64,000 nt of DNA from an uncultured Clostridia bacterium (GTDB lineage Bacteria > Bacillota > Clostridia > Oscillospirales > Acutalibacteraceae): assembly GCA_944380885.1 (NCBI GenBank), contig CALWIZ010000007.1:5122-69121 (forward strand), in the 5' to 3' direction. Of the stretch, positions 15,710 through 55,780 are shown in pieces. Position numbers and translations under genes: made by a program. Numbering within the stretch: position 1 is the first letter of the stretch; the number at the start of each line of letters is the position of its first letter. Under the pieces are notes generated by a model, which did not search any database, was not told the DNA's origin, and saw only the letters and a program-made list of their open reading frames with translations.

Positions 15710-15738
15710 TTGCACAAAGTTTTTCAATTTTTTATAAT
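15710..15738 (+). promoter_or_regulatory. internal sigma-A-type promoter (TTGCAC-17-TATAAT)
   Basis: TTGCAC at 15710-15715, 17-nt spacer, TATAAT at 15733-15738, in the 138-nt AT-rich gap between the GH38 and GH30 genes. Confidence 0.5.
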
Positions 15739-15768
15739 AATTATATGCAAAATGGGAGGAAATTTAAA

Positions 15769-28936: not shown

Positions 28937-30166
28937 ATGAGCTATATTAATCGACATATGGAACAGCGCATAACCGAACTTTCAAAAACATGGCCGGCAA
29001 TTCTGCTTACCGGTCCGCGTCAGTCCGGCAAAACCACTATGCTTAAAAACCTTGCAGAAAAGGAAAATATCGGCCGTGAATACATTTCCCTTGATGATTT
29101 AACCGTAAGAGAAATGGCAAAAAACGACCCTAAAATGTTCCTGCAGCTGCACAAACCGCCGATTATTATCGACGAGGTTCAGTACGCTCCGGAGTTGTTC
29201 ACTTATATAAAAATTCATGTGGATACACATCATAACCCCGGTGATTTCTGGTTGACCGGTTCGCAGGTTTTCAGTCTGATGAAAGGTGTTCAGGAGTCGC
29301 TTGCCGGTCGTGTTGCGCTTCTGCATATGTCGCCCCTGTCTCAAAGAGAAATTATCGGTGCGGTGCCACGTCCCTTTACTACCGACTTCGATACATTAGC
29401 AGAGGACAGCAAAAACATTCAGGCTCTTACCGCCCCTCAGATGTACGCGCGTATATGGAACGGCTGTATGCCCGGTCTTGCAAGCGGAGAATATAGCGAC
29501 AGAAATATGTTCTACTCTTCTTATTTATCCACCTACATCGAGCGTGACGTCCGCGAACTTTCCGGAGCTATTGACGCCCTGAAGTTCTCAAGATTTATCA
29601 CAGCGGTCGCTGCCCGTGCATCACAGCTTGTGAACTATAAAGCGATGGCTGACGATGCGGATATCGATCAGAACACTGCAAAGGCGTGGCTTCAGATACT
29701 TGAGACGCTGGGAATTATCTTTCTTCTGCATCCGTATTCCAATAATGTTTTAAAACGCACAATCAAAACACCGAAACTATATTTTTATGATACTGGTTTT
29801 GTCTGCTATCTTACAAAATGGTCATCGCCCGAGGTTGCAGAAAGCGGAGCTATGAGCGGGGCATTGCTTGAAAACTTTGCCGTATCCGAAATTATGAAAA
29901 GTTATCAGAATGCAGGCAAAGAACCGTATCTCAACTATTATCGCGACCGTGATGCGAGAGAAATTGACGTTATTATCGAAGGTGACGGCAAACTGTGTCC
30001 GCTGGAGATAAAGAAAACAGCCAATCCTGACAAGAGAATCACAAAGGCATTCAAGCTTATTGATAAATCGCCTCTTATGCTCGGCACATCCGCTGTGCTC
30101 TGTATGAGCGACCGCCTTTCTGCCTTCGACAAAGATAATCTCATAGTCCCGATATGGATGATATGA
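28937..30166 (+). CDS. AAA+ ATPase of the AAA_14/DUF4143 type
   Basis: Walker A GPRQSGKTT, Walker B-like PPIIIDEVQY. 409 aa with the characteristic C-terminal region ...YFYDTGFVCYL...YYRDRDAREIDVII. Confidence 0.8.
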   Translation: MSYINRHMEQRITELSKTWPAILLTGPRQSGKTTMLKNLAEKENIGREYISLDDLTVREMAKNDPKMFLQLHKPPIIIDEVQYAPELFTYIKIHVDTHHNPGDFWLTGSQVFSLMKGVQESLAGRVALLHMSPLSQREIIGAVPRPFTTDFDTLAEDSKNIQALTAPQMYARIWNGCMPGLASGEYSDRNMFYSSYLSTYIERDVRELSGAIDALKFSRFITAVAARASQLVNYKAMADDADIDQNTAKAWLQILETLGIIFLLHPYSNNVLKRTIKTPKLYFYDTGFVCYLTKWSSPEVAESGAMSGALLENFAVSEIMKSYQNAGKEPYLNYYRDRDAREIDVIIEGDGKLCPLEIKKTANPDKRITKAFKLIDKSPLMLGTSAVLCMSDRLSAFDKDNLIVPIWMI

Positions 30167-30311
30167 AGGAGTAAAAAAACAACGATTATAAAAACTTTAA
30201 AATGTCTAGAAAATTATGTCATTTAAGGAAAACGGGAATATTTTTGATAAGTAATTTACTCCCTTTAATTTTCATTAAGCGCTGATTTTACAAATCGGAT
30301 ATATAGACAAG

Positions 30312-30689
30312 TTGCTTATTAGGGATTTTTCTGCGGATTCGGTGCTTTGGGGAATTGATGGCGATTGGATGGTAAATTTCTATCCCAAAGGCAATCAATT
30401 TTATCCTACCGACCATTGCGGTGTGCTGAGAGTGCTGACAGATAAAGTTCATCCTCGATATATGGCAAGAATTCTTGAAACCGAAGGCAAAAATATGAAT
30501 TTTTCCCGCACCTATCGTGCGTCAATTGATAGAATCGAGGGTATCTCTTTTAGTGTTCCTTCATTTGACGTTCAGGAAAAAGCTATGAAGCAGGTAGTAG
30601 AATTAGAAGCAAAAATTTATGAATTGGAAAGAAAATTAGAGACTTTTGAGGGCAAAAAGGCGGAGATTTTAGCATCTTTTCTTAATTGA
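30312..30689 (+). pseudogene. orphan fragment resembling the C-terminal TRD/conserved helix of a restriction-modification specificity (HsdS-like) subunit
   Basis: 125 codons opening with TTG and no convincing RBS. The tail ...RASIDRIEGISFSVPSFDVQEKAMKQVVELEAKIYELERKLETFEGKKAEIL has the (I/L)P(L/S)xxEQ plus coiled-coil look of HsdS ends. No hsdM or hsdR lies nearby. Confidence 0.4.
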
Positions 30690-31156: not shown

Positions 31157-31164
31157 CATTTTGC

Positions 31165-31263
31165 AATTCAGGGAGCTTGATGAAACTCAGGCTGAGAGGG
31201 AGTCCGTCTTTTGACTATGGCTCCGACCTGCGACCTGATACGGATAATGCCGTCGTAGGGAAA
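31165..31263 (+). promoter_or_regulatory. TPP (thiamine pyrophosphate) riboswitch aptamer
   Basis: Conserved cores ...GGGAGC...CTGAGAGGG... and ...ACCTGATACGGATAATGCCGTCGTAGGGA. It is followed by its own terminator and then thiT. Confidence 0.85.
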
Positions 31264-31279
31264 TACACAAAATGTATTG

Positions 31280-31308
31280 CCGCGGGCATTTCTGCCCGCG
31301 GTTTTTTT
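31280..31308 (+). terminator. riboswitch expression-platform terminator
   Basis: CCGCGGGCA-TTTC-TGCCCGCGG followed by TTTTTTT. Confidence 0.8.
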
Positions 31309-31370
31309 ATTCGCCGGGGAATTGCAGAAAATAAAAATGCCGGTTTGATCCGGCGAAGGAGAGTAAAAAA

Positions 31371-31955
31371 ATGGAAATGAAAAACAAACCTGTTTACAAA
31401 CTTGCTTTAAGCGCTATATTTGTGGCGCTCGCTACCGGACTCAGCTTTATTAAGATATGGGAAATGCCGCTCGGCGGCTCAATAACGCTTCTCAGCATGC
31501 TTCCTATCGTTATGATATCTATTATGCTGGGACTTAAATGGGGAATAGGCAGCGCGTTCGTTTATTCGCTTATCCAGCTTATGTTCGGTATATCTGAGGT
31601 GCTTAGCTGGGGTCTTACGCCTGTAATGCTTGTCGGCACAATGCTGCTCGATTACATACTTCCCTTTACGGTTCTCGGCGTGGCGGGAGCGTTTGTAAAA
31701 AAAGGCTACGCGGGAATCTGCGCCGGCGTTGTTCTTGCACTCGGACTGAGATTTTTAAGCCATTTTCTGTCAGGTGTTATTATTTTCCGGAATCTTGAGC
31801 AGTTTAAACTTTTCGGAACACTTTTTGCCAACCGTCCGTATCTTTATTCCTTCTGCTACAACGGATTTTATATGATTCCGGAAATAATCATCACCACAAT
31901 AGCTGCTGTAATTCTTTTCCGTATGTCTTCGGTCAAGAAGCTGATGGCGCAGTAA
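31371..31955 (+). CDS. thiT: ECF-type thiamine transporter S component ThiT
   Basis: 194 aa, 6 TM. N-terminus KLALSAIFVALATGLSFIKIWEMPLGGSITLLSMLPI. RBS AAGGAGAG. Sits downstream of the TPP riboswitch. Confidence 0.8.
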   Translation: MEMKNKPVYKLALSAIFVALATGLSFIKIWEMPLGGSITLLSMLPIVMISIMLGLKWGIGSAFVYSLIQLMFGISEVLSWGLTPVMLVGTMLLDYILPFTVLGVAGAFVKKGYAGICAGVVLALGLRFLSHFLSGVIIFRNLEQFKLFGTLFANRPYLYSFCYNGFYMIPEIIITTIAAVILFRMSSVKKLMAQ

Positions 31956-33473: not shown

Positions 33474-33502
33474 TTGACATAATAAAAAAGCGGTGTTATA
33501 CT
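33474..33502 (+). promoter_or_regulatory. sigma-A promoter (TTGACA-17-TATACT) for T-box leader 1
   Basis: TTGACA at 33474-33479 and TATACT at 33497-33502. Confidence 0.65.
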
Positions 33503-33508
33503 ATTTGA

Positions 33509-33783
33509 AAATGATAAAGGCATTGACGAAGACGGTCCGGAATGACTGCTTTAAGAGAGCCGGTGGTTGGTGTGAACCGGCAGTACGTATTCCAGAGTGA
33601 CCCATCGCTTCCGAGCCGGAGCACTGAATTCGCAAGACAGTAGGTTCTCCCGTGATTGCTGCGTAAAGGCATAGGGATTGTTGGATCCCAAGAGGTGGCG
33701 GCTTTCATGCCGCAATTTGAGTGGTACCGCGGATGTATTTTCACACCCGTCTCAAGGATTTCTTGAGACGGGTGTTTTTATTT
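33509..33783 (+). promoter_or_regulatory. T-box riboswitch leader 1 (inferred specifier AUC, Ile)
   Basis: GA/K-turn TTGACGAAGA paired with CTTCCGAGCC. AG bulge AAGAGAG. Distal loop GGTTGGTGTGAA. T-box sequence AATTTGAGTGGTACCGCGG at 33713-33731. Terminator CACCCGTCTCAAG-5 nt-CTTGAGACGGGTG plus TTTTT at 33744-33779. Candidate specifier ATC at 33604-33606, followed by G and then the CTTC strand of the basal helix. Confidence 0.8.
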
Positions 33784-33803
33784 CACAAAGGAGGCTTTTA
33801 AAA

Positions 33804-36074
33804 ATGGCAACAGTATCAACCGACAGTCAGCTTAAAGAGGTTGCGGTGAGAATCCGCGAAATGCGTGAGATATGCGGCATTTCCGAGGCCGATATGGCGC
33901 AGAAGACGGAGGTAAGCGTAGAAGAATACAGACTTTACGAGGAAGGAAAAAAGGATTTTCCTTTCACCTTTATACATAAATGCTCGCTGGCGTTCGGCAT
34001 AGGCATTACCGACCTGCTTGAAGGACAGAGCGCTCATCTTTCTTCCTACACTGTTACCCGCAAGGGTCATGGACAGCAGACCGCCAAAGAGGACGGAATA
34101 GAAATACAGAACTTAGCCCCGCTTTTCAGAAAAAAGATAGCCGAGCCGTACTGGGTAAGATATGAGTATCATTCCGAGCTTCAGGATAAGCCGATACATC
34201 TTACAAATCATTCCGGTCAGGAGTTCGACTTTGTAATGAGCGGCAGGCTCAAGGTTCAGATAGGTGAAAATGTTGAGTATCTGAGCGAGGGAGACAGTAT
34301 CTATTACAACTCTTCCACGCCTCACGGAATGATAGCCGTTGACGGCAGGGACTGCCTGTTTGTTGCTGTGGTGCTCCCCGGTGAGGACGTAAAGGAGGAC
34401 ATAATCCGCGGAACGATAGTTTCGGCTCATTCGGGAACAAAGGAATATGTTTCCTCAAAGTTCATCGATACGGTTGAGGACGAGAACGGCGTGCTTCAGA
34501 AGATAGACTTCAAAAATGAGGATAAGTTCAATTTTGCTTTTGACATTGTCGATGCGATAGCCAAAAAGGAACCCGACAAGCTGGCGATGCTCCATATAGA
34601 TAAAAACAAGACTGAGCGCAGATTTACCTTTAACGATATGAAGCGTGCCTCCAACCAGTGTGCCAACTATTTCAAGTCGCTTGGCATAAAGAAGGGCGAC
34701 AGGGTAATGCTGGTACTTAAAAGGCACTATCAGTTCTGGTACGCAATACTGGCGCTTCACAAGCTCGGAGCGATAGCGATACCCGCTACCAACCTTCTGC
34801 AGCAGCACGACTTTGAGTACCGCTTCAACGCGGCGGACGTAAGCGCCATAGTCTGCACCGCCGACGGGGACGCAGCGCATCAGGTGGATCTGGCGGAGCC
34901 TTCAAGCCCGACGCTTAAGACCAAGATACTCGTAGGCGGCAAGCGTGACGGCTGGCACGACTTTGACGAGGAGTTTCCGCTGTTCAGCGCGCATTTCTAC
35001 CGCACCGAGGACACCGCCTGCGGCGACGACCTTATGCTTATGTTCTTTACATCAGGAACCACGGGATACCCGAAGATAGCCGCCCACAGCTACAAATACG
35101 CGCTCGGACACTACATAACCGCCAAATACTGGCACGGTGTTGACGAAAACGGATTGCACTTTACAATATCCGAGACCGGCTGGGGCAAGGCGCTCTGGGG
35201 CAAGCTGTACGGTCAGTGGCTCTGCGAGGGCGCGGTATTCACCTACGACTTTGACCGCTTTGACGCGTCGGATATACTCCCTATGTTTGCGAAATACAAC
35301 ATCACAACCTTCTGCGCTCCGCCGACAATGCTGCGCATGATGATAAAGGAGGACATATCAAAGTACGACCTTTCGTCGATAAAGCATATGACCACAGCAG
35401 GCGAGGCGCTTAACCCGGAGGTTTACAGGCAGTTTGAAAAGGCGACCGGCCTTCAGATAATGGAGGGCTTCGGTCAGACCGAGCTGACGCTCGTTATTGC
35501 AAACCTTATGGGTAATCCCCACAAACTCGGATCGATGGGTATGCCTACCCCGCTTTACGATGTCGATATACTTGATCCTGACGGAAATCCGGTACCTGAC
35601 GGCGAGACCGGCGAAATAGTTGTAAAGACCTCAGAGAAAGTTCCCTGCGGCCTATTCAAGGGCTATTACAAGAACGAGGAAAAGACAAAAGAGGTATGGC
35701 ACGACGGTTATTATCACACCGGAGATACCGCGTGGAGAGACGAGGACGGCTTTTACTGGTATGTCGGCCGTGTGGACGATGTTATTAAGTCATCGGGCTA
35801 CCGCATAGGGCCGTTCGAGATAGAGAGCGTAATAATGGAGCTTCCTTATGTGCTTGAGTGCGGAGTTTCCGCTGCGCCCGACGAGATACGCGGTCAGGTG
35901 GTAAAGGCGAGTATCGTGCTTGTAAAGGGCACCGAGGGTACGGAAGAGCTTAAAAAGGAAATCCAGAACTATGTAAAGCAGCACACCGCGCCTTACAAGT
36001 ATCCGAGGATAGTAGAGTTCAAGACTGAGCTGCCTAAGACCATAAGCGGAAAGATCCAGCGTAATAAGCTGTAA
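33804..36074 (+). CDS. tri-domain fusion: XRE-type HTH + cupin + AMP-forming (medium/short-chain) acyl-CoA synthetase, paralog 1
   Basis: Start at ATG 33804 after AAAGGAGG; the track start 33678 lies inside the T-box leader. HTH: LKEVAVRIREMREICGISEADMAQKTEVSVEEYRLYEEG. Cupin: HSGQEFDFVMSGRLKVQIGE...GDSIYYNSSTPHGM. Adenylation motifs MFFTSGTTGYPK, YHTGDTAW, SGYRIGPFEIES, and the C-terminal PKTISGKIQR. Confidence 0.85.
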   Translation: MATVSTDSQLKEVAVRIREMREICGISEADMAQKTEVSVEEYRLYEEGKKDFPFTFIHKCSLAFGIGITDLLEGQSAHLSSYTVTRKGHGQQTAKEDGIEIQNLAPLFRKKIAEPYWVRYEYHSELQDKPIHLTNHSGQEFDFVMSGRLKVQIGENVEYLSEGDSIYYNSSTPHGMIAVDGRDCLFVAVVLPGEDVKEDIIRGTIVSAHSGTKEYVSSKFIDTVEDENGVLQKIDFKNEDKFNFAFDIVDAIAKKEPDKLAMLHIDKNKTERRFTFNDMKRASNQCANYFKSLGIKKGDRVMLVLKRHYQFWYAILALHKLGAIAIPATNLLQQHDFEYRFNAADVSAIVCTADGDAAHQVDLAEPSSPTLKTKILVGGKRDGWHDFDEEFPLFSAHFYRTEDTACGDDLMLMFFTSGTTGYPKIAAHSYKYALGHYITAKYWHGVDENGLHFTISETGWGKALWGKLYGQWLCEGAVFTYDFDRFDASDILPMFAKYNITTFCAPPTMLRMMIKEDISKYDLSSIKHMTTAGEALNPEVYRQFEKATGLQIMEGFGQTELTLVIANLMGNPHKLGSMGMPTPLYDVDILDPDGNPVPDGETGEIVVKTSEKVPCGLFKGYYKNEEKTKEVWHDGYYHTGDTAWRDEDGFYWYVGRVDDVIKSSGYRIGPFEIESVIMELPYVLECGVSAAPDEIRGQVVKASIVLVKGTEGTEELKKEIQNYVKQHTAPYKYPRIVEFKTELPKTISGKIQRNKL

Positions 36075-36094
36075 AAGTATTTTATTTAAAAATA

Positions 36095-36123
36095 TTGACA
36101 AATTCCTTTTGTTGTGATAAGAT
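36095..36123 (+). promoter_or_regulatory. sigma-A promoter (TTGACA-17-TAAGAT) for T-box leader 2
   Basis: TTGACA at 36095-36100 and TAAGAT at 36118-36123, beginning 21 nt after the paralog-1 stop. Confidence 0.55.
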
Positions 36124-36129
36124 GTATTA

Positions 36130-36418
36130 CATCAAAATTCAAAGGCGCTGACGAAGAGGATACGGCTGATGCTTTTAAAGAGAGATAACGGTTGGTGTAA
36201 GTTATCAGAGAAAGGCCTGTATTTGTAGCTTCCGAGCCGGGAGGAAGAAAGTTTTTAACGAGTAGAACCTCCCCGTGACTGCTGCGTAAAGGCATAGGAA
36301 TTGTTTGATTCCAAGAGTGGCGGCTTTTCTGCCGCAATTTGAGTGGTACCGCGGGCTACCGATATATATGTATTTCGGCGCTCGTCTCAAAGTCATAACT
36401 TTGGGACGAGCGTTTTTT
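36130..36418 (+). promoter_or_regulatory. T-box riboswitch leader 2 (inferred specifier GUA, Val)
   Basis: Same architecture as leader 1. CTGACGAAGAGG paired with CTTCCGAGCC. AAAGAGAG. GGTTGGTGTAA. T-box sequence AATTTGAGTGGTACCGCGG at 36336-36354. Terminator CGCTCGTCTCAAAG-6 nt-CTTTGGGACGAGCG plus TTTTTT at 36379-36418. Candidate specifier GTA at 36225-36227, followed by G and CTTC. Confidence 0.8.
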
Positions 36419-36452
36419 CGTCCCGAAAGGCTGAAGCCGAGGAGGAAAAAGT

Positions 36453-38744
36453 ATGAAACAGATAACAGGGCTTGATTACAAAATCAAGGAAATGGCGGCG
36501 CGCATAAGGGAGTTGCGCGAGATTGAGGGACTTTCGGTTGCCGATATGGCACAAAAGACCGCCGTAAGCGAGGAGGAGTACACCGCCTGTGAAAACGGCG
36601 AGAGCGATTTAAACTTCGCTTTTATATACCGCTGCGCGCTTGCGTTCAATGTAGATGTCACCGATATTATAGAGGGTCAAAGCCCGACCCTGCGCTCCTA
36701 TACCGTAACGAGAAAGGGCGAGGGTCAGCGCATTGAAAAGGCGCACGGAATGACCTATTATAACCTTGCCGCCGCCTTCCAGAACAGGATAGCCGAGCCG
36801 CTTTACGTTAAAAGCGCTTACAGTGAGGAGGCGCAGCACCGTGATATTGAGCTTACCACTCATGCCGGTCAGGAATGTGACCTTATAATAGAGGGAAAGC
36901 TCAAGGTTCAGGTGGGCGAGCATAAGGAAATTTTAGGTCCGGGGGACAGTATTTATTACGACAGTTCAACTCCGCACGGAATGATAGCCGTTGACGGCAA
37001 GGACTGTATATTCTACGCGATAGTGCTTAACCCGACCGGTGAGCCTATCCCCGAGCTTGAGGACGAAAAGCCGGTCGCCCAGAATGTGGCGCCCCACACG
37101 CCGGACACCAAGAACAGAATATACAGAAAATACACCGAGGTCACAAAGGACGAAAACGGAACACCGGTTTCTATAAAGTTCAAGAATACCGAGCATTTCA
37201 ACTTCGCTTTTGACCTTGTGGACGCTCTGGCAGATAAGGACCCTGACAAGCTGGCGATGCTGCATATCTCAAAGGATAAGACCGAGCGCAGGCTGACCTT
37301 CAAGGATATGAAAAAGGCTTCCAATCAGTGCGCCAACTATTTCAAGTCCTTAGGCATAAGAAAAGGCGACCGCGTAATGCTGGTGCTTAAAAGGCATTAC
37401 CAGTTCTGGTACGCGATACTGGGGCTTCACAAGCTGGGAGCGATAGCGATACCCGCCACAAACCAGCTTCAGGAGCACGATTTTGAGTACCGCTTCAAAA
37501 CCGCCGGCGTTTCGGCGATAATCTGCACAGCCGACGGTGATACAGCTCATCAGGCGGATATAGCGGCGGCAAACTGTCCTGAGCTTAAGCATAAGCTGAT
37601 AGTAAACGGCACGCGTGAGGGCTGGCGCCCGTTTGACGAGGAGTACACCCTTTACAGCACCCATTACAACCGTCCGGACGACGCCCCCGGAGGGGACGAC
37701 CTTATGCTGATGTTCTTTACGTCGGGAACAAGCGGATACCCGAAAATCGCCGCTCACAACTATAAATATGCCCTCGGACATTTCCACACGGCGAAATACT
37801 GGCACAACGTCGATCCTGACGGACTGCACTTTACCATTTCGGATACCGGCTGGGCAAAGGCGATGTGGGGCAAGCTGTACGGTCAGTGGCTCTGCGAGGC
37901 GGCTACTTTCGTTTACGATTTCGACCGGTTTGACGCGGCGGATATTCTTCCGATGTTCGCGAAATACAATATAACCACCTTCTGCGCGCCGCCTACGATG
38001 CTCAGAATGATGATAAAGCAGGATATCTCAAAGTACGATTTCTCGTCTGTTAAGCATATGACCACAGCGGGCGAGGCGCTGAACCCCGAGGTTTACAGGC
38101 AGTTTGAAAAGGCCACGGGTCTTCAGATACTGGAGGGCTTCGGACAGAGCGAAAGCACCATGATAATCGGCAATATGACCGGCGCACCGCATAAGATAGG
38201 CTCAATGGGCAAGCCGGCGCCGATTTACGATGTGGATATAGTGGATTCCGACGGCAACCCGGTACCTCCCGGAGAGACCGGTGAAATAGTCATAAACATT
38301 AAAAACGGTTATCCATGCGGTCTTGCCGTAGGTTATTACGGCGACGAAGAAAAGACAAAGGAAACATGGCGCGACGGATATTACCACACCGGCGACACCG
38401 CGTGGAAGGACGAGGACGGCTTTTACTGGTACGTTGGCCGCGTGGACGATGTTATCAAGTCTTCGGGCTACCGCATAGGGCCGTTCGAGATAGAAAGCGT
38501 TATAATGGAGCTTCCTTATGTGCTTGAGTGCGGCGTTTCGGCGGCTCCCGACCCGGTGCGCGGTCAGGTGGTAAAGGCGAGCATAGTTCTTGTTGACGGA
38601 ACAGAGGGCACTGAGGAGCTTAAAAAGGAAATCCAGAATTACGTAAAGCAGCATACCGCGCCTTACAAGTATCCGCGTATAGTAGTATTCAGAGACAGTC
38701 TTCCTAAAACTACCAGCGGAAAAATTCAGCGTAATAAGTTATAA
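36453..38744 (+). CDS. tri-domain fusion: XRE-type HTH + cupin + AMP-forming acyl-CoA synthetase, paralog 2
   Basis: 763 aa, collinear with paralog 1. The C-terminal halves are nearly identical in places (ILPMFAKYNITTFCAPPTMLRMMIK, YHTGDTAW.DEDGFYWYVGRVDDVIKSSGYRIGPFEIESVIMELPYVLECGVSAAPD). The inter-domain linker and mid-region are more divergent. Confidence 0.85.
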   Translation: MKQITGLDYKIKEMAARIRELREIEGLSVADMAQKTAVSEEEYTACENGESDLNFAFIYRCALAFNVDVTDIIEGQSPTLRSYTVTRKGEGQRIEKAHGMTYYNLAAAFQNRIAEPLYVKSAYSEEAQHRDIELTTHAGQECDLIIEGKLKVQVGEHKEILGPGDSIYYDSSTPHGMIAVDGKDCIFYAIVLNPTGEPIPELEDEKPVAQNVAPHTPDTKNRIYRKYTEVTKDENGTPVSIKFKNTEHFNFAFDLVDALADKDPDKLAMLHISKDKTERRLTFKDMKKASNQCANYFKSLGIRKGDRVMLVLKRHYQFWYAILGLHKLGAIAIPATNQLQEHDFEYRFKTAGVSAIICTADGDTAHQADIAAANCPELKHKLIVNGTREGWRPFDEEYTLYSTHYNRPDDAPGGDDLMLMFFTSGTSGYPKIAAHNYKYALGHFHTAKYWHNVDPDGLHFTISDTGWAKAMWGKLYGQWLCEAATFVYDFDRFDAADILPMFAKYNITTFCAPPTMLRMMIKQDISKYDFSSVKHMTTAGEALNPEVYRQFEKATGLQILEGFGQSESTMIIGNMTGAPHKIGSMGKPAPIYDVDIVDSDGNPVPPGETGEIVINIKNGYPCGLAVGYYGDEEKTKETWRDGYYHTGDTAWKDEDGFYWYVGRVDDVIKSSGYRIGPFEIESVIMELPYVLECGVSAAPDPVRGQVVKASIVLVDGTEGTEELKKEIQNYVKQHTAPYKYPRIVVFRDSLPKTTSGKIQRNKL

Positions 38745-38776
38745 TTTTTTTAAATAGTATTATAAAGGGAGGAAGT

Positions 38777-39439
38777 ATGGATTACAAACGACTGACCCTC
38801 ATCTGCGGCCATTACGGCAGCGGAAAGACAAACGTCGCCGTAAATCTTGCGTTTGACCTTAAAAGGCAGTATAATAAAACATCGATAGCGGACCTTGATA
38901 TAGTTAATCCCTACTTCCGCACAAAGGACAGCATGGAAGAGCTTGAAAGGGCGGGAATAGAGCTTATCTGCTCGGATTACGCCGGAACGAATGTGGATAT
39001 TCCGGCTCTGCCTCAGCAGATGTATTCGATAACCGACGACCGCTCAAAAAAGGTGATACTCGATATAGGGGGAGACGACCGCGGCGCTCTGGCGCTTGGG
39101 AGGCTTGCTCCGGCGATACTTGCCGAAAACGATTACGAGATGCTTATGGTGATAAACCGGTTCCGTCCGCTCACAAGGGACGCGCGTTCCACGGTAGAGG
39201 TAATGCGTGAAATCGAGTACGCGGGGGGCATACCCTTTACGGGGCTTGTAAACAACTCAAATCTGGGCGAGGAGACGACAGCGGAGGATATTCTTTCTTC
39301 GGTTACTTATGCCAATGAGGTATCACGGCTTTCCTCACTGCCGGTAATTTGCACTACCGTACACGACACGGTTTATGCCGCTGTCGCGGGTAAAATAAAT
39401 AATTTATTCCCGTTAAAGCTCCAGCCGAAAATAGGCTGA
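38777..39439 (+). CDS. small SIMIBI/MinD-ParA-like P-loop NTPase of unknown role
   Basis: N-terminal deviant Walker A ICGHYGSGKTNVAVNLA, then DLDIVNPYF and ILDIGGDD. 220 aa. No CxC metal motif of CooC type. RBS GGGAGGAAG. Confidence 0.6.
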   Translation: MDYKRLTLICGHYGSGKTNVAVNLAFDLKRQYNKTSIADLDIVNPYFRTKDSMEELERAGIELICSDYAGTNVDIPALPQQMYSITDDRSKKVILDIGGDDRGALALGRLAPAILAENDYEMLMVINRFRPLTRDARSTVEVMREIEYAGGIPFTGLVNNSNLGEETTAEDILSSVTYANEVSRLSSLPVICTTVHDTVYAAVAGKINNLFPLKLQPKIG

Positions 39440-39465
39440 GGCGGGGAAATTCAAACAAAGGAGAC

Positions 39466-39678
39466 TTGAAAATGGCTAAGCTGACATTCAAAACCGATAA
39501 CTGCAAGGGCTGCGGACTGTGCGTAGACGCCTGTCCGAAGCATGTTCTGCAGTTGGCGGCGGACAAGATCAACAAAAAAGGACATCATCCGGTCGAGGCG
39601 GTAAAGGAAGACGAGTGCATCGCCTGCGCTTTCTGCGCCACAATGTGCCCCGACTGCATAATAAAAATAGAGAGGTAA
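39466..39678 (+). CDS. 2-oxoacid:ferredoxin oxidoreductase delta subunit (2x[4Fe-4S] ferredoxin)
   Basis: 70 aa with CKGCGLCVDACP and CIACAFCATMCP. Confidence 0.85.
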   Translation: MKMAKLTFKTDNCKGCGLCVDACPKHVLQLAADKINKKGHHPVEAVKEDECIACAFCATMCPDCIIKIER

Positions 39679-39687
39679 GTGAAAAAT

Positions 39688-40755
39688 ATGTCAGAAAAGG
39701 TTTTGATGAAGGGCAACGAGGCGCTGGCGGAAGCCGCCATAATCGCCGGCTGCCGTCATTATTTCGGTTATCCCATAACCCCGCAGACCGAGGTTGCCGC
39801 CTATATGGCAAAGAGAATGCCGAAAATCGGCGGAACATTTTTACAGGCTGAAAGCGAGATTGCCGCAATAAATATGGTTTACGGCGTATCCTCGACCGGC
39901 CACAGGGTCATGACATCGTCTTCAAGCCCAGGAATTTCGCTTAAGGGCGAGGGACTTTCCTATCTTGCCGGTTCAGATCTTCCGGCGCTTGTAATCAACG
40001 TACAGCGCGGCGGCCCGGGACTCGGCGGAATACAGCCGTCGCAGTCGGACTATTTTCAGGCTACAAAGGGCGGCGCACACGGCGACTTCCATATGATAGT
40101 TCTGGCGCCCGCTTCGGTTCAGGAAATGGCTGACCTTACCGTAAAGGGCTTTGAGCTTGCCGATAAATACCGTATGACCTCTATGGTTCTGGCGGACGGT
40201 ACTATGGGTCAGATGATGGAACCTGTTTCGCTTGAATACGATATAAAGCCTGCCCCCGAAAAGCCGTGGGCGACTACGGGAACAAAAATGCAGAGAGAGC
40301 ATAACATTATAAATTCGCTTTCACTTGTTCCCGAAGAGCTTGAGAGGTTAAATATAGAGCGCTACAAGAGATATGACGAGGTCGAGAAAAATGAGGTCAT
40401 GTACGAGGAGTATATGATGGACGACGCCGAGATCTGCATAGCGGCGTTCGGTATTGCCGCCCGTGTCTCAAAGAACGCGATTACCGAGGCGAGAAGACAG
40501 GGCATAAAGGCCGGTATGATAAGACCGATAACCCTCTGGCCGTTCCCGAAGGCGCCGTTTAAAAAAGCGGCTAAGAGCGTAAAGCAGTTTATTTCTGTTG
40601 AGCTTTCAATGGGACAGATGATAGAGGACGTTCGTCTGGCGACCGAATGCAGAGTGCCCGTAACTCTCTGCAACCGCGTGGGCGGTATGATACCGTCGCC
40701 TGAGATGGTACTTGAGGCTATTAAGGAAGCCGCGAAAAACGGAGGTGCAAGATAA
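39688..40755 (+). CDS. vorB: 2-oxoacid:ferredoxin oxidoreductase alpha subunit (VorB-like)
   Basis: Start taken at ATG 39688 (MSEKVLMKGNEALAEAAIIAGC...); GTG 39679 is an alternative. The ~355-aa size and N-terminal KGNEA..EAAI.AG pattern fit the KorA/VorB/PorA family. Confidence 0.8.
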   Translation: MSEKVLMKGNEALAEAAIIAGCRHYFGYPITPQTEVAAYMAKRMPKIGGTFLQAESEIAAINMVYGVSSTGHRVMTSSSSPGISLKGEGLSYLAGSDLPALVINVQRGGPGLGGIQPSQSDYFQATKGGAHGDFHMIVLAPASVQEMADLTVKGFELADKYRMTSMVLADGTMGQMMEPVSLEYDIKPAPEKPWATTGTKMQREHNIINSLSLVPEELERLNIERYKRYDEVEKNEVMYEEYMMDDAEICIAAFGIAARVSKNAITEARRQGIKAGMIRPITLWPFPKAPFKKAAKSVKQFISVELSMGQMIEDVRLATECRVPVTLCNRVGGMIPSPEMVLEAIKEAAKNGGAR

Positions 40756-41510
40756 TGGTAGTATTTGAAAAACCACACGCGCTGACAGATGTGCCGATGC
40801 ACTACTGCCCGGGCTGTACGCACGGTATAGTTCACCGCCTTGTCGCCGAGGTTATAGACGAGTTAGGGATAGAGGGAAAGACGGTTGGAATAGCGCCGGT
40901 CGGCTGTTCGGTTATGGCGTACAATTACTTTAACTGCGATATGATAGAGGCGGCTCACGGCCGCGCTCCGGCAGTCGCCACAGGCGTTAAGCGTGCCGAG
41001 CCGGACAATATCGTGTTTACATATCAGGGCGACGGAGATCTTGCGTCAATCGGTACCGCCGAAACGGTACATTCCGCCGCGAGAAACGAGAATATAACCG
41101 TTATATTCATAAACAACGCGATTTACGGTATGACCGGCGGACAGATGGCTCCTACCTCTCTGCCCGGTCAGGTGACCCAGACCTCTCCCTACGGCAGGGA
41201 CGTAAAGCTCTGCGGCTACCCGGTAAAGGTCTGCGAAATGCTTTCACAGCTTGACGGACCGGAATACCTTGAGCGTGTTGCGGTAAATAACGTAAAGAAT
41301 ATAAAGAACGCTAAAAAGGCAATTAAAAAAGCGTTCCAGAATCAGATAGACGGCAAGGGATTTTCGCTTGTCGAGGTAATCTCAAGCTGCCCGACAAACT
41401 GGGGTCTTACTCCGCAGAACGCGCTCAAATGGATAGACGAAAAAATGATACCATATTACCCGCTGGGCGTTTATAAAGACCGCTCTGCCGCCAAGGAGGA
41501 AACGAAATGA
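40755..41510 (+). CDS. 2-oxoacid:ferredoxin oxidoreductase beta subunit (TPP-binding)
   Basis: YCPGCTHGIVHR, GDGDLASIG, NNAIYGMTGGQ. The start overlaps the alpha-subunit stop. Confidence 0.85.
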   Translation: MVVFEKPHALTDVPMHYCPGCTHGIVHRLVAEVIDELGIEGKTVGIAPVGCSVMAYNYFNCDMIEAAHGRAPAVATGVKRAEPDNIVFTYQGDGDLASIGTAETVHSAARNENITVIFINNAIYGMTGGQMAPTSLPGQVTQTSPYGRDVKLCGYPVKVCEMLSQLDGPEYLERVAVNNVKNIKNAKKAIKKAFQNQIDGKGFSLVEVISSCPTNWGLTPQNALKWIDEKMIPYYPLGVYKDRSAAKEETK

Positions 41511-42052
41511 GTACAACACAGTTTTTGTTTGCCGGATTCGGCGGTCAGGGTATACTCTTCGCCGGAAAATTCGCGGCGTATAAGGGACTTATCGGGGAAA
41601 AGCAGGTGAGCTGGCTGCCGTCATACGGACCCGAAATGCGCGGTGGCACAGCGAGCTGCAGCGTTATTATAAGCGATGAGCCGGTAGGCTCTCCTATCGT
41701 TTCAAAGCCTGATGTGCTTATTGCCATGAACCTGCCCTCGCTTGACAGGTACGAAAGCGCTGTTGCCGTGGGAGGAACCATTTTTGTTGATTCCACTCTT
41801 ATCGACCGCAAGGTTGAGCGTGACGATGTCGCGGTTTACTATGTCCCGGCGACCCGTCTTGCAAGCGATAACGGTATGCCGACACTTGCCAATATGATAC
41901 TTATGGGAAATATTCTTAAGGTAATGAATGATTTTGACGAGGAAAGCGTTACCGAAGCACTTAAAAAGGTTGTTTCCGCGAAGCATGCGGATATGCTTGA
42001 TGTAAACCTTAAGGCGCTTAAAATAGGCGCTGAATATAAAGAGGAAGTGTAA
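41507..42052 (+). CDS. 2-oxoacid:ferredoxin oxidoreductase gamma subunit
   Basis: 181 aa, [14 protein letters not shown]...[10 protein letters not shown]. 4-nt overlap with the beta-subunit gene. Confidence 0.85.
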
Positions 42053-42055
42053 GTC

Positions 42056-43120
42056 ATGGAAATCAAGATTGTAAAAACCGATTCTCCCAAGGAAAAACCC
42101 GACAGCAGCACATTAGGCTTCGGAAAAATTTTCACCGACCATATGTTTATTATGGATTATTCGCGTGAGAAAGGTTGGCACGACGCGAGGATAGTACCGT
42201 TTGGCAATATTTCTCTGCACCCGGCGTCAACCGTACTGCATTACGGCTCCGAAATTTTTGAGGGTCTTAAAGCGTACCGCCGCGCGGACGGGAAGGTTCA
42301 GCTTTTCAGACCGATTGAAAATATCCGCAGAATGAATAATTCCGCTGAAAGACTCTGCCTGCCGCAGATAGACGAAAAGGACGCTATGCAGATACTTGAG
42401 ACTTTTGTTTCGCTTGAGCAGGACTGGACGCCGTCAGCTGAGGGAACTTCCCTTTACCTGCGCCCATTTATGTTCGGAAACGATGAGTCGCTGGGCGTTC
42501 ACGCGGTGCACAACGCGACTTATATGATTATCGCGTCTCCTGTCGGAAGCTATTATAAAGAGGGCATAAACCCCGTAAAGATTATGATAGAGGACGAGGA
42601 CGTGCGCGCGGTAAGAGGAGGCACAGGCTACGCCAAGTGCGGCGGAAACTATGCTGCCAGCAACCGCGCCGGCGAGAGAGCCGAGCAGAAGGGTTATTCT
42701 CAGGTGCTCTGGCTTGACGGCGTTGAGCGCAAGTATATAGAGGAAGTCGGCGCTATGAACGTTATGTTCAAAATCGGCGGCGAGATTGTAACCCCGAAGC
42801 TCACGGGTTCAATTCTTCCGGGAATCACCAGAAAGTCCTGCATTGAGGTGCTTAAAGACGAGGGCTATACCGTAAACGAGAGACTTTTAAGCGTTGACGA
42901 GCTTGGAGAGGCGCTTAAGAACGGAACGCTTGAGGAGGCATGGGGCTGCGGTACCGCGGCGGTCGTCTCCCCGATAGGCGAGCTTTGCTACAAGGACGTT
43001 AAATACACTATCAACAACGGCGAGATCGGCAAGGTCACACAGCATCTTTATGATACTCTCACCGGAATACAGTGGGGCAAAATCGAGGATAAGTACGGCT
43101 GGACATATCCGATTAAGTAA
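42056..43120 (+). CDS. ilvE: branched-chain amino acid aminotransferase
   Basis: 354 aa fold-type IV pattern: FTDHMF, LHYGSEIFEGLKAYR, LYLRPFMFG, GTGYAKCGGNYAAS, GITRKS. Confidence 0.9.
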   Translation: MEIKIVKTDSPKEKPDSSTLGFGKIFTDHMFIMDYSREKGWHDARIVPFGNISLHPASTVLHYGSEIFEGLKAYRRADGKVQLFRPIENIRRMNNSAERLCLPQIDEKDAMQILETFVSLEQDWTPSAEGTSLYLRPFMFGNDESLGVHAVHNATYMIIASPVGSYYKEGINPVKIMIEDEDVRAVRGGTGYAKCGGNYAASNRAGERAEQKGYSQVLWLDGVERKYIEEVGAMNVMFKIGGEIVTPKLTGSILPGITRKSCIEVLKDEGYTVNERLLSVDELGEALKNGTLEEAWGCGTAAVVSPIGELCYKDVKYTINNGEIGKVTQHLYDTLTGIQWGKIEDKYGWTYPIK

Positions 43121-43127
43121 CTAAAAA

Positions 43128-43163
43128 AAGCGTATCCGTTTTTTTGCGGATACGCTTTTATTT
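43128..43163 (+). terminator. rho-independent terminator after ilvE
   Basis: AAGCGTATCCG-loop TTTTTTTG-CGGATACGCTT followed by a T-rich tail. The same GCGTATCCG/CGGATACGC stem recurs after htpG. Confidence 0.85.
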
Positions 43164-48245: not shown

Positions 48246-49091
48246 TTAATTTCCGCTCAGCTTTTTATCGATTTCCTCCGCCGCGGAAGTAAGGTAACCG
48301 CACTCAAAGCGCTCGAAAACGCCGTTGTCCACCATCTGCGAGAGCGACGGGTCAACCGGCATTTTAGCAAGCAGCGGCACGCCCAGCTCTTTCGCCACGG
48401 TCTCGCTGCCCGAGCCGAAAAGCTCGATTTTCTTTCCGCAGTCGGGGCATACGACATAGCTCATATTCTCAACAATGCCGAGCACCGGAATGTCCATCAT
48501 AGCCGCCATATTGTAGGCCTTTTTCACTATAAGTGAAACAAGGTCCTGCGGAGATGTAACGATAACCACGCCGTCAAGCGGAATAGTCTGGAAAACGGTA
48601 AGCGGAACGTCGCCCGTTCCGGGAGGACAGTCAATTATAAGATAATCAAGGTCCCCCCATACTACATCGTGCCAAAACTGCTTTACGGCTCCCGCGATGA
48701 TAGGGCCGCGCCACAGCACCGGCGAATCCTTTTCGGGCAGCATCATATTTATTGAAATTATCTTTATGCCTGATTCGGTCTCAGCGGGGAGTATGCCTAT
48801 CTCGTTCTGCATAGCGGGCGAGGTAATACCGAAGGTTTTGGGTATTGACGGGCCGGTAATGTCCGCGTCAAGTATGCCGACATTTTTACCCATTCTGTTA
48901 AGCAGAACCGCAAGCATTGAGGCGGTCATTGATTTTCCGACGCCGCCCTTGCCGCTTACCACGCCGATAACGTGTTTAATATTGTTGTATTCACCTGTAG
49001 GCTCTATAAGGCTCTGAGGATCGCGCGAGGCGCAGCTTTCCCCGCATGACGAACAGTCGCCCGAACAGCCCTGATGTGTTTGTTCTGACAT
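48246..49091 (-). CDS. mrp: Mrp/NBP35/ApbC-family Fe-S cluster carrier ATPase
   Basis: Start at ATG 49091 after AGAGGA. Cys-rich N-terminus GCSGDCSSCGESC, Walker A SGKGGVGKS, and CPDCG. Confidence 0.85.
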   Translation of the reverse strand: MSEQTHQGCSGDCSSCGESCASRDPQSLIEPTGEYNNIKHVIGVVSGKGGVGKSMTASMLAVLLNRMGKNVGILDADITGPSIPKTFGITSPAMQNEIGILPAETESGIKIISINMMLPEKDSPVLWRGPIIAGAVKQFWHDVVWGDLDYLIIDCPPGTGDVPLTVFQTIPLDGVVIVTSPQDLVSLIVKKAYNMAAMMDIPVLGIVENMSYVVCPDCGKKIELFGSGSETVAKELGVPLLAKMPVDPSLSQMVDNGVFERFECGYLTSAAEEIDKKLSGN

Positions 49092-49247
49092 ATTTTTTCC
49101 TCTTTTCAATCATTATATAAAGTTATTATACCGCTGAGAAGCAGAAAAATCAATCGCCGCACACAAAAAATTCCAGCTGTATTTTTGTTTGTCTTTACGC
49201 CGCCATACAAGCAATATCCGCTTTGCTGCTTATATTTTAATTGTAAT

Positions 49248-51872: not shown

Positions 51873-52784
51873 TTATTCCACCTCCAGCAGCATTAAAATA
51901 AGCGCCATTCTCATATATTTGCCGTAAAGCACCTGCTTGAAATAGCAGGCACGGGGGTCTTTGTCAACAGCAACGCTTATTTCGTTGACACGGGGCAGCG
52001 GGTGAAGTATACACATATCGGCGCGCGCGTTTTTGAGCTTTTCGGGAGTTAATATATAGCTGTCTTTGAGCCGGAGATAATCCTCTTCGTTGAAGAAACG
52101 CTCTCTCTGTACCCTTGTCATATAGAGAATATCAAGCTGCGGCATAGGCTCCTCAAGGCTTGTCGTTTCGGTGTAGGGGATACCCTTGTCGTCAAGCGTC
52201 TGCTTTACATAGCCGGGCAGCTTTAACTCCTGCGGCGAGATAAGCACGAATTTTACGCCCATATAGCGGGACAGCGCGGCTATTAGCGAATGTACCGTCC
52301 TGCCGAATTTAAGGTCGCCGCAAAGACCGACTGTCAGGTTCTCAAAGCCGCCCTTCTCGCGGTAAATCGTAAGCAGGTCGGCAAGTGTCTGGGTCGGGTG
52401 ATTGTGGCCGCCGTCGCCGGCGTTTATCACCGGAACGCTCGCGTTCATTGCCGCCACAAGCGGCGCGCCCTCTTTAGGGTGGCGCATGGCTATGATATCG
52501 GCATAGCAGGATATTACTTTAGCGGTGTCCGCCACGCTCTCGCCCTTTGAGGCTGAAGAACTCTGCGCCTCTGAAAAGCCTATTACGTTTCCGCCAAGCT
52601 CGTACATAGCCGCCTCAAAGCTGAGCCTTGTTCTTGTGGACGGCTCGAAAAACAGGGTGGCGAGCTTTTTGCCTTTGCATTTTTCACTGTATTTCGCCGG
52701 ATTTCCTATAATATCGTTGGCGGTTTTTATAAGCTGTTCAAGCTCGTCTGTATTAAGCTCTAAAATATCTATAAGGCTTCTCAT
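51873..52784 (-). CDS. pyrB: aspartate carbamoyltransferase catalytic subunit
   Basis: [22 protein letters not shown]. 303 aa. Directly abuts pyrI. Confidence 0.95.
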
Positions 52785-53425
52785 TTCGCCGCACCTATCC
52801 AGCTTTCGTCTGACGGGTTGTTTCTGAACGCTATAAGCCGCTTTATATCCTCCGGCTTTATATAGCCGTTCTCCGCCGCTACCTCGGCTATGCAGTCAAA
52901 ATCGGTAAGGCTTATGTTTTTAAGGTTCGCCGCGGCTAAGCGGTCAAGCCCCTTCTGCATTCCGTAGGTGAATATTGAGGCTATACCCAGCACTTCTGCG
53001 CCTGCCTCACGCAGAGCCTCCGCAACCTCGATAACGCTGCCGCCGGTGGAAATAAGGTCTTCTATGATAACTACCTTCTGACCCTTTTCGAGTCTGCCTT
53101 CAATGCGGTTCTGTCTGCCGTGGTCTTTGTTGCCCGAACGGACATATCCCATAGGCATATCAAGCAGGTGAGCTGTTATCGCCGCGTGGGCGATACCGGC
53201 GGTTGATGTGCCCATAAGCACCTCAGCTTCCGGATAATTTTCCTTTACCACTTTGGCAAGGCTTTGCTCAACGTCGTTTCTCACTTCGGGAGCTGTAAGG
53301 GTAAGCCGGTTGTCACAGTAAACCGGACTTTTAATGCCGCTCGCCCATGTAAAAGGCTCCTCGGGGCGGAAGAAAACTGCCTGTATTTTTAAAAGGTCGC
53401 TTGCTATAAGTCTTTTGATATCCAT
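52781..53425 (-). CDS. pyrE: orotate phosphoribosyltransferase
   Basis: PRPP motif [13 protein letters not shown]. 214 aa. 4-nt overlap with pyrB. Confidence 0.9.
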
Positions 53426-53437
53426 TTTTTCTGCTCC

Positions 53438-54136
53438 TTATCCTACAAATTCCTTAACGCAGCGTTCGTATGCCGCCACGGGGTCTTCCGCCGCGGTTAT
53501 CGGTCTGCCGACAACGATATAATCGCTGCCTATTTGCTTTGCCCTTTCGGGGGTTGTCACTCTTGACTGGTCGCCCTTGTCGCCGTCGGCGAAGCGAATG
53601 CCGGGGGTGACGGTGTAAAAGCCCTTTCCGCAGACGCTGTGCACCGCCGCCGCCTCGAGCGGTGAGCAGACAACGCCGTCAAGTCCCGCTCTTTTGGCGT
53701 TTAAGGCGTAGTGCATAACCACCTTTTCCATCGGCTTTTCTATAAGCAGGTCAGAGCGCATTCTTTCCTCGCTCGTTGAGGTAAGCTGGGTCACGGCTAT
53801 AAGTATCGGTCTTGTGCCGTCGGGACGGGTAAGCCCCTCAAGCGCCGCCTCCATCATAGCGACGGTGCCGCCCGCGTGCAGGTTGCACATATCGACATCA
53901 AGGCGGGAGAGCACCGCCATAGATTTTTTGACCGTGTTCGGAATATCGTGCAGCTTAAGGTCTAAAAATATTTTGTGACCTTTTTCCTTTATGTCCCTTA
54001 CAATCTGCGGGCCCTCAGCGTAAAAAAGCTCCATACCTATCTTGACAAAAGGCTTTACGCCGGTAAACTTATCAAGAAATGACATACATTCAGCTTTGCC
54101 GGCGAAATCGCAGGCTATTATAACGTCCTTACCCAT
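53438..54136 (-). CDS. pyrF: orotidine 5'-phosphate decarboxylase
   Basis: [19 protein letters not shown]. 232 aa. Confidence 0.9.
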
Positions 54137-55771: not shown

Positions 55772-55780
55772 TTTATCACC

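Follow-up and report, generated by a model that had tools for sequence, protein, structure and literature searches.

A 9.7-kb operon on the + strand (33474-43163) of a 64,000-nt stretch of Clostridia DNA (GCA_944380885.1, contig CALWIZ010000007.1, 5,122-69,121; hereafter the window) carries two T-box riboswitch leaders in series, the first with an isoleucine (Ile) and the second with a valine (Val) specifier, and each leader stands before its own paralogue of a fused acyl-coenzyme A (CoA) synthetase. The operon is made up of two promoter/T-box units, two helix-turn-helix (HTH)-cupin-acyl-CoA synthetases, a SIMIBI-class P-loop NTPase, a four-subunit 2-oxoacid:ferredoxin oxidoreductase, ilvE and a terminator (Table 1). 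We consider it likely that these genes form a demand-gated salvage pathway in which reductive carboxylation would turn exogenous 2-methylbutyrate into Ile and isobutyrate into Val. From its letters alone, the locus had been predicted to make branched-chain amino acids anabolically out of branched short-chain fatty acids (the original prediction), and this reading is supported here by the specifiers, by the likeness of the synthetases to the ligases MacsMa and MbcS, by a VorB-type oxidoreductase subunit and by IlvE. Every element listed in that prediction was located, at or a few bases from where it had been placed, and the gene set stood, with the start of synthetase 1 corrected to the ATG at 33804.

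A conserved operon with two promoters

The stretch from synthetase 2 to ilvE is tightly packed, with intergenic gaps of 3-32 bases or overlaps (the start of the beta subunit gene overlaps the stop codon of alpha, and gamma and beta overlap by 4 nt), and a single terminator closes the set. A terminator was also looked for between the stop codon of synthetase 1 and the second promoter (P2), and none is there, so that transcripts from the first promoter (P1) run into leader 2. Both promoters are sigma-70-like. The position of P1 relative to its leader is kept in 55 related loci and that of P2 in 56.

Relatives of the fused synthetase were found in at least 589 species-representative genomes, and the best 80 loci of such genomes with a fused synthetase served as our conservation sample for all comparisons below. 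They come from metagenome-assembled genomes of Clostridia that live in the gut or rumen, belonging to the Acutalibacteraceae, Ruminococcaceae and Oscillospiraceae and in some cases to the Lachnospiraceae, and one of them, L001, is 99% identical to the window. The survey of gene order that had been proposed along with the original prediction found the order conserved: an identical arrangement of the eight genes is present in 36 of the 80 loci, minor variants of it occur in most of the others, and with few exceptions each of the two synthetase genes has a T-box leader before it. The recurrence of this layout is far beyond chance.

At least five loci have a single synthetase, always with an Ile leader upstream. 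In six loci, a paralogue of ilvE and a gene for a C-N hydrolase are placed between synthetase 2 and the P-loop gene (L041, at 14861-16786, L045, L047, L052, L060 and L064); the divergent ilvE paralogue shows ∼48% identity, and the best model for the inserted hydrolase is a YafV-type amidohydrolase (125 bits against a cut-off of 249). If glutamine were the amino donor, such a pair of a transaminase and an omega-amidase would make amino-acid formation irreversible.

The two leaders carry Ile and Val specifiers

Both leaders were compared with the Rfam T-box model RF00230, for which the gathering score is 93 bits. Leader 1 matches the full model (positions 1-219) at 33514-33757 with 95.2 bits (E = 1.3e-19), and leader 2 matches the full model at 36139-36392 with 85.9 bits (E = 2.6e-19). 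The Rfam check of the predicted T-boxes thus placed leader 1 above the gathering score and leader 2 below it, with only orthologues of leader 2, in L016, L073 and L079, exceeding the score (95.6-101.6 bits).

The elements expected of a T-box could be read in both leaders. In leader 1, the specifier AUC (33604-33606) is followed by a G (33607) and by the closing helix strand CUUC (33608-33611), and the UGGU bulge lies at 33722-33725; leader 2 has the same arrangement, with GUA (36225-36227), G (36228), CUUC (36229-36232) and UGGU (36344-36347). The T-box sequence AAUUUGAGUGGUACCGCGG was found in both leaders by reading the sequence directly, and the UGGU bulge would fit a tRNA with A as its discriminator base (A73). 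Each leader ends in a terminator hairpin followed by a U run (33743-33775 and 36377-36414, with 15 and 17 pairs, respectively), and each of these hairpins overlaps the 3′ half of the T-box helix of its own leader. No tRNA genes were found within the 64-kb window.

The Rfam alignments put AUC at the specifier position of leader 1 and GUA at that of leader 2. This position was checked in an alignment of Stem I of 30 leaders (15 Ile-type and 15 Val-type), for which a consensus fold was calculated with RNAalifold. The consensus holds 21 predicted pairs, 16 of which show compensatory changes. In it, an invariant triplet lies 5′ of the closing helix (CUUC paired with GAAG), with a single base between the two. 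This triplet reads AUC in all 15 aligned leaders of the first kind and GUA in all 15 of the second. When all loci were considered, AUC was found in the 67 full-length leaders that precede synthetase-1 types, and GUA (60 leaders) or GUC (3 leaders) in those that precede synthetase-2 types, with no exception in either group. One locus, L068, has leaders (60-325 and 2738-3004) that are 81% identical, compared with 63-72% in other loci, and that read AUC and GUC at the specifier, and the enzymes downstream of them still carry Ile-type and Val-type residue signatures. This pair looks like the result of a recent duplication or gene conversion that was followed by a one-base change of specificity. 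We conclude that the T-box leaders of the original prediction are confirmed, with Ile (AUC) and Val (GUA) specifiers that are each tied to their own synthetase paralogue.

The synthetases resemble 2-methylbutyrate and isobutyrate ligases

The two synthetases, which are 71% identical to each other, both match the Pfam families HTH_3/HTH_19 (under the cut-offs in synthetase 1), Cupin_2, AMP-binding (227 and 220 bits for synthetases 1 and 2, respectively) and AMP-binding_C (72 and 75 bits). In synthetase 1, an XRE-like HTH (residues 16-74) and a cupin (∼95-195) are followed by an AMP-forming ligase domain (237-756), and the motif PKTxSGKI aligns with the catalytic lysine motif (Lys609) of E. coli Acs. 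Among structures in the PDB, the closest to the catalytic domain is 3ETC, that of the medium-chain acyl-CoA synthetase MacsMa from Methanosarcina acetivorans, at 624 bits over residues 237-754; 2-methylbutyrate is the preferred substrate of MacsMa (PMC10455477). The best NCBIfam model is the methylbutyryl-CoA synthetase MbcS (452 and 437 bits), and because these scores are far under the equivalog cut-off of 850 bits, we regard the synthetases as relatives of MbcS and not as MbcS itself. S. aureus MbcS is selective for 2-methylbutyrate and isobutyrate, with isovalerate and butyrate being poor substrates and acetate inactive (PMC10026030).

Residues of the acyl pocket bear on the same question. 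A Gly in place of Trp414 of Acs opens the pocket beyond acetate (PMC10455477), and Gly557 of synthetase 1 and Gly564 of synthetase 2 align with this Trp in the E. coli enzyme. Between Ile-type (n = 67) and Val-type (n = 52) enzymes, 18 positions are fixed differently, 3 of which are in the catalytic domain. The sole acyl-pocket position that separates the paralogues is the column of Acs Val310, which we take to be an acetate-pocket residue: it is Gly461 in synthetase 1 (Ile type) and Ala468 in synthetase 2 (Val type). The extra methyl group of Ala, set against a substrate that is one carbon shorter, would fit the pairing of 2-methylbutyrate with Ile and of isobutyrate with Val. Taken together, the nearest characterised enzymes, the T-box specifiers and the Gly/Ala difference suggest that the synthetases prefer 2-methylbutyrate or isobutyrate.

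A different starting point for the Ile arm is propionate, which synthetase 1 would convert to propionyl-CoA; the oxidoreductase would carboxylate this to 2-oxobutyrate and the ordinary ilv enzymes would finish Ile, with the Val arm still using isobutyrate. We regard this reading as quite improbable. Reductive carboxylation of propionate is an Ile route of anaerobes, in which alpha-ketobutyrate synthase leads from propionate through 2-oxobutyrate to Ile in clostridia and rumen bacteria, and an Ile T-box names the amino acid that is needed, not its precursor. Adenylation of propionate is also within the reach of MacsMa (PMC10455477). However, it is the Ile type that has the larger-pocket Gly and the Val type that has Ala, the opposite of what a C3 versus a C4 substrate would lead one to expect, and it is with 2-methylbutyrate that the nearest enzymes of known activity carry the reaction through best. 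Furthermore, no ilvB, ilvC or ilvD is linked to the operon in the window or in the related loci, and no ilv or leu gene other than the operon's own ilvE is present within the 64 kb.

The oxidoreductase, IlvE and the direction of the pathway

The alpha subunit of the oxidoreductase scores 539 bits against the NCBIfam VorB model NF005507 (cut-off 399), VorB being the type found in 2-oxoisovalerate:ferredoxin oxidoreductase (VOR). All other models matched under their cut-offs: the generic 2-oxoacid model at 317 bits, the 2-oxoglutarate model at 237, PorA at 93.6 and IOR at 64.7, with the KOR and oxalate models of NCBIfam also scoring lower than VorB. For the beta subunit, the best NCBIfam match is a 2-oxoglutarate-type model (130 bits against a cut-off of 364), and delta matched the OGOR_delta/PorD_KorD models of NCBIfam below their cut-offs. 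Because beta, gamma and delta do not reach a curated cut-off, we take the VOR label from the alpha subunit and from its context; the VOR-like character that the original prediction had read from the subunit sizes held for alpha, with POR and IOR far lower. The assignment of ilvE stood on two equivalog models, with the protein scoring 485 bits against PRK13357 (cut-off 307) and 400 bits against TIGR01123 (cut-off 250).

Uncharged cognate tRNA is the signal by which T-boxes turn genes on, and ligases that form AMP serve to activate acids; these two properties argue for a biosynthetic direction. It is conceivable that the branched acyl-CoAs are instead primers for membrane fatty acids, like those made by S. 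aureus MbcS, and that IlvE and VOR work oxidatively, as the best NCBIfam model is that of a supplier of lipid primers and VOR is reversible. We give this very little credence, because IlvE and VOR working oxidatively and induced by uncharged tRNA-Val would drain an amino acid that is scarce; in addition, T-box control is typical of genes for amino-acid supply, no fab genes are linked, and the C-N hydrolase that stands beside an aminotransferase in some operon variants would pull toward the amino acid. Catabolic fermentation of branched-chain amino acids, from the amino acid through the 2-oxoacid and acyl-CoA to the acid, is scarcely credible even though the same aminotransferase and oxidoreductase families act in this way in proteolytic clostridia, since AMP-forming ligases conserve no energy in the acid-forming direction, T-boxes respond to a lack of an amino acid and not to its abundance, and Pfam and NCBIfam scans found neither a phosphotransacylase/kinase pair nor an ADP-forming ligase.

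A model for demand-gated salvage of branched acids

In the salvage of 2-methylbutyrate and isobutyrate that we favor, uncharged tRNA-Ile would pair with the AUC of leader 1 and stabilize the antiterminator, allowing synthetase 1 to be made, and this enzyme would activate 2-methylbutyrate to 2-methylbutyryl-CoA in an AMP-forming reaction. Uncharged tRNA-Val would read the GUA of leader 2 and let both transcription from P2 and read-through from P1 continue. The opened leader 2 would lead to synthesis of synthetase 2, which would convert isobutyrate to isobutyryl-CoA, of the P-loop protein, of the VOR-type oxidoreductase and of IlvE. With reduced ferredoxin and CO2, the oxidoreductase would carboxylate the two acyl-CoAs to 3-methyl-2-oxopentanoate and 2-oxoisovalerate, which IlvE would then transaminate to Ile and Val. 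We infer these substrates, this direction and this regulation in vivo from the features, specifiers, enzyme families and conservation observed.

Several points weigh against this model. Leader 2 is 7 bits under the Rfam gathering score, and in 24 of the 67 Ile-type leaders the base 3′ of AUC is C (CCCAUCCCUUCC) and not the usual purine (for example, in the leaders at 369-629 of L002, 4423-4679 of L014 and 9713-9976 of L079; the window leader has G). Pfam recognises the expected domains in beta, gamma and delta, but none of the three reaches a curated NCBIfam cut-off, the VorB model that alpha matches is defined at the subfamily level only, and the substrate range of this oxidoreductase family is hard to judge from sequence. 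The regulation would also be incomplete for one of the two amino acids, in that Ile limitation alone would open leader 1 only and VOR and IlvE would then need read-through of leader 2, either at a basal level or triggered by Val. Such imperfect logic has a precedent in B. subtilis, where the shared enzymes of the ilv-leu operon are under a single leucine (Leu) T-box. Finally, neither a system for reducing ferredoxin nor an acid transporter is encoded in the operon, and the model gives no definite task to the HTH-cupin module or to the P-loop protein, both of which are conserved.

A Leu module in related loci

The original prediction had also included the conversion of isovalerate to Leu, a claim that did not hold for the window, which reads Ile and Val only. 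No Leu element was found there, and a tblastn search of the window with the proteins of the Leu module described below gave only matches of 25-27% identity, to the two synthetases; coverage of Leu or isovalerate by the window operon was rejected on these matches. In contrast to the window, ∼30 of the 80 relatives have a third T-box flanking the operon, with a CUC (Leu) specifier and Rfam scores of 116-132 bits. Examples of this module are found at 19364-22262 of L013, 9825-12683 of L019, 10985-16084 of L032 and 10164-15089 of L042, and it lies upstream of synthetase 1 in L047, L049, L057, L060 and L062-L064.

Behind this T-box, the Leu module first encodes a LeuA-like protein (HMGL-like and LeuA_dimer domains) that lacks the RDGEQ motif and is under the cut-offs for isopropylmalate synthase (283 bits against a cut-off of 532). 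The next protein, of 830 aa, joins a xylose-isomerase-like TIM barrel to an acyl-CoA ligase that differs from those of the operon and scores 698 bits with PRK12583 (cut-off 832). An Amidohydro_2 protein is sometimes added. This module may be a Leu-specific arm of the system in these relatives.

The N-terminal HTH-cupin module

The HTH-cupin module makes up residues 1-200 of both synthetases (33804-34400 and 36453-37050 of the window). The HTH of synthetase 2 is above the Pfam cut-offs (33.2 against 30.2 bits for HTH_19 and 24 against 23 for HTH_3), and that of synthetase 1 is under them (22 and 21.8 bits). An AlphaFold2 (AF2) model shows an XRE-type helical domain joined to a cupin barrel, with the helices modeled at a predicted local distance difference test score (pLDDT) of 85-96. 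His136, Glu140 and His174 do not vary across 53 sequences and follow the His-x3-Glu...His pattern by which cupins hold a metal. The module also holds 15 of the 18 paralogue-specific positions mentioned above, and two of these, H132E and N169D, are near the triad.

Foldseek found the same two-domain layout in the XRE-cupin regulator 1Y9Q and in HppE, HEPD and MPnS (E = 5e-10 to 1e-8); the overall superposition is poor (template modeling (TM) score ∼0.3) because the orientation of the domains differs. The similar helical domain of HppE, HEPD and MPnS does not bind DNA, and, unlike in any of these proteins, the module studied here is fused to an acyl-CoA ligase. An oxygen-dependent reaction catalyzed by the module is unlikely in this anaerobe. 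Inverted-repeat scans detected no conserved palindrome or operator at P1 or P2 in the window, and no conserved palindrome was seen in ∼55 orthologous promoter regions that were read side by side by eye, with no motif tool; the -35 and extended -10 boxes are conserved in the same regions. The lack of a conserved operator makes a DNA-binding role less likely, and we do not claim autoregulation. A search for standalone HTH-cupin relatives returned mainly fragments of the same fusion on short contigs. A function of the module as a paralogue-specific ligand sensor or regulator is offered as speculation.

The P-loop NTPase linked to the oxidoreductase

The P-loop protein carries the Walker A motif CGHYGSGKT, the motif DVGGDDRG with a DxxG-type Walker B and the motif NNSN, and within these GHYGSGKT and DVGGDD are invariant. 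It has >8000 homologues, and the label at NCBI is 'hypothetical protein'. A sequence search of the PDB found no relative. The AF2 model (pLDDT 87.6) has a SIMIBI fold, and Foldseek matched it to SRP54, FtsY and MinD with a probability of 1.0 and a TM score of ∼0.5-0.6, a resemblance that is generic only. Matches to the Mrp and ParA models of Pfam and NCBIfam are at ∼20 bits and restricted to the P-loop, and the protein has neither the CxxC of Mrp/ApbC, nor the KGG of MinD/ParA, nor the motifs of CooC or NifH. A role as an Fe-S carrier of the Mrp/ApbC type or in NifH-like electron transfer was considered and found to be unsupported, with C10 as the single invariant Cys. The window encodes an Mrp/NUBPL-type Fe-S carrier P-loop ATPase elsewhere (48246-49109, - strand; ParA PF10609, 301 bits), and this protein is unrelated in sequence to that of the operon.

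In every operon variant, the P-loop gene is directly upstream of the gene for delta (vorD). Given this fixed linkage to the oxidoreductase genes, we regard the protein as a probable accessory factor of the VOR-type enzyme. The parts discussed in this and the two preceding sections could be combined in a broader scheme of three-layer control, which we consider doubtful: HTH-cupin sensors, each specific to its paralogue and responding to Ile/Val or to the acids, would gate the ligase or transcription, the P-loop NTPase would mature the oxidoreductase or energize it for a carboxylation that runs uphill, and the Leu module would complete a modular Ile/Val/Leu salvage regulon spread over hundreds of gut and rumen Clostridia species.

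Genomic context

The features of the operon are listed in Table 1. Upstream of it, on the + strand, a glycan-utilization cluster (988-26910) encodes ATP-binding cassette sugar transporters, a GH38 alpha-mannosidase, a GH30 enzyme, a GH130 mannoside phosphorylase and a DUF5696 protein, as well as a dockerin-bearing protein (19681-21606); cluster and dockerin point to an organism that lives by degrading fiber or glycans and has components of the cellulosome type. At 28937-30689 (+), a DUF4143/AAA_14 ATPase and, behind it, a 125-aa fragment of a type I restriction-modification S subunit are probably the remnant of a mobile or defense element. Just upstream of the operon, which includes an enzyme dependent on thiamine pyrophosphate (TPP), lies an ordinary TPP riboswitch/transporter unit (31159-31955, +), consisting of a riboswitch (RF00059; 60.1 bits against a gathering score of 54.3) and a ThiT/YuaJ-type thiamine transporter.

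Downstream of the ilvE operon, a pyrimidine biosynthesis operon on the - strand (51873-61258) encodes aspartate carbamoyltransferase, a phosphoribosyltransferase, orotidine monophosphate decarboxylase, dihydroorotate dehydrogenase B with its electron-transfer subunit, the small chain of carbamoyl-phosphate synthase and dihydroorotase, and contains a 1059-aa open reading frame (55781-58960).

Table 1. Features of the operon, in window coordinates
Feature	Position	Strand	Basis or details
Promoter P1	33474..33502	+	TTGACA-17-TATACT, TG-extended -10; 11/12 matches in consensus scan
T-box leader 1, Ile-specific	33514..33780	+	RF00230; specifier AUC
Synthetase 1 (Ile type), 756 aa	33804..36074	+	Proposed 2-methylbutyrate-CoA ligase; Pfam/NCBIfam
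Promoter P2	36095..36123	+	TTGACA-17-TAAGAT, TG-extended -10
T-box leader 2, Val-specific	36139..36419	+	RF00230 full model; specifier GUA
Synthetase 2 (Val type), 763 aa	36453..38744	+	Proposed isobutyrate-CoA ligase; architecture as synthetase 1
SIMIBI-class P-loop NTPase, 220 aa	38777..39439	+	Pfam CbiA, 28.8 bits
Oxidoreductase delta subunit, 70 aa, 2x[4Fe-4S] ferredoxin-like	39466..39678	+	Pfam Fer4 families
Oxidoreductase alpha subunit, VorB type, 358 aa	39679..40755	+	NF005507; Pfam POR_N, PFOR_II
Oxidoreductase beta subunit, 251 aa, TPP-binding, N-terminal CPGC motif	40755..41510	+	Pfam TPP_enzyme_C
Oxidoreductase gamma subunit, 181 aa	41507..42052	+	Pfam POR, 126 bits
IlvE, class IV type II branched-chain aminotransferase	42056..43120	+	PRK13357, TIGR01123
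Intrinsic terminator ending the operon	43126..43159	+	Bidirectional hairpin between A and T runs

Significance and comparison with known systems

It has long been known that branched-chain volatile fatty acids act as growth factors for bacteria that degrade fiber in the rumen and gut, and the acids also serve as feed additives. The genes for the conversion of branched acids to amino acids in Firmicutes have long been vague, and the operon presents a concrete gene set for it. Its specifier codons are a built-in functional label that would assign a substrate to each of the paralogous ligases. The trait should be predictable from metagenomes, which would sharpen models of auxotrophy and cross-feeding in the gut, where proteolytic fermenters make the acids and fiber degraders use them. 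The synthetases also offer a natural enzyme pair for the tuning of C5 versus C4 selectivity by Gly or Ala, and two conserved puzzles, the fused HTH-cupin module and the VOR-linked P-loop NTPase, are brought to light.

In the 1960s-1980s, Allison, Bryant, Robinson and co-workers reportedly described how anaerobes of the rumen and gut form Val, Ile and Leu by reductively carboxylating branched-chain volatile fatty acids. For this route, Allison et al. 1984 is cited in PMC7709123. The chemistry proposed here is the same, from acid to acyl-CoA, ferredoxin-dependent carboxylation and transamination, and so is the setting in gut and rumen Clostridia; however, the rumen and gut work consisted of physiology and enzymology without genes, whereas here there is a defined operon with its regulators, and one that covers Ile and Val only. 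In a 2020 proteomics paper on Prevotella bryantii, the reverse reaction was called 'not proven yet but ... theoretically possible'.

The individual enzymes also have known counterparts. MacsMa shares with the synthetases the Gly that replaces Acs Trp414, but it is archaeal and has no HTH-cupin extension, no T-box and no known linkage to VOR or ilvE genes. The two acids used by S. aureus MbcS are those predicted here, but that enzyme feeds lipid synthesis and is encoded by a single gene with no N-terminal fusion. VOR (EC 1.2.7.7) of the methanogen VorB type is a multi-subunit enzyme that depends on TPP and Fe-S clusters, as the oxidoreductase of the operon is expected to from its sequence; in contrast to the methanogen enzyme, four separate subunits are encoded here in the order delta-alpha-beta-gamma, with a dedicated P-loop gene upstream. 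Methanogen VOR enzymes are said to have been regarded as anabolic by Tersteegen and co-workers in 1997.

The T-box survey of Wels et al. 2008 has no CoA ligase or oxidoreductase among its named targets, and a literature search, the coverage of which was incomplete so that an earlier description is possible, found no description of T-box-controlled acyl-CoA ligases or VOR or of this operon, in agreement with the view of the original prediction that the layout is undescribed. It is the genetic architecture that appears to be undescribed; the pathway chemistry, the way in which T-boxes work and the enzyme families were known before. The T-boxes of ilv-leu, ileS and valS in B. subtilis belong to the same riboswitch class and follow the same logic, and there is precedent for the tRNA of one amino acid controlling enzymes that are shared by several. 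Unlike the targets of known T-boxes for branched-chain amino acids, which are the de novo pathway, transporters or tRNA ligases, those of the operon are acyl-CoA ligases and a VOR-type enzyme of a proposed salvage route, and, as a further difference, two leaders of different specificity stand in series in one transcription unit, making the operon a clear example of two T-boxes of different specificity that are wired in this way.

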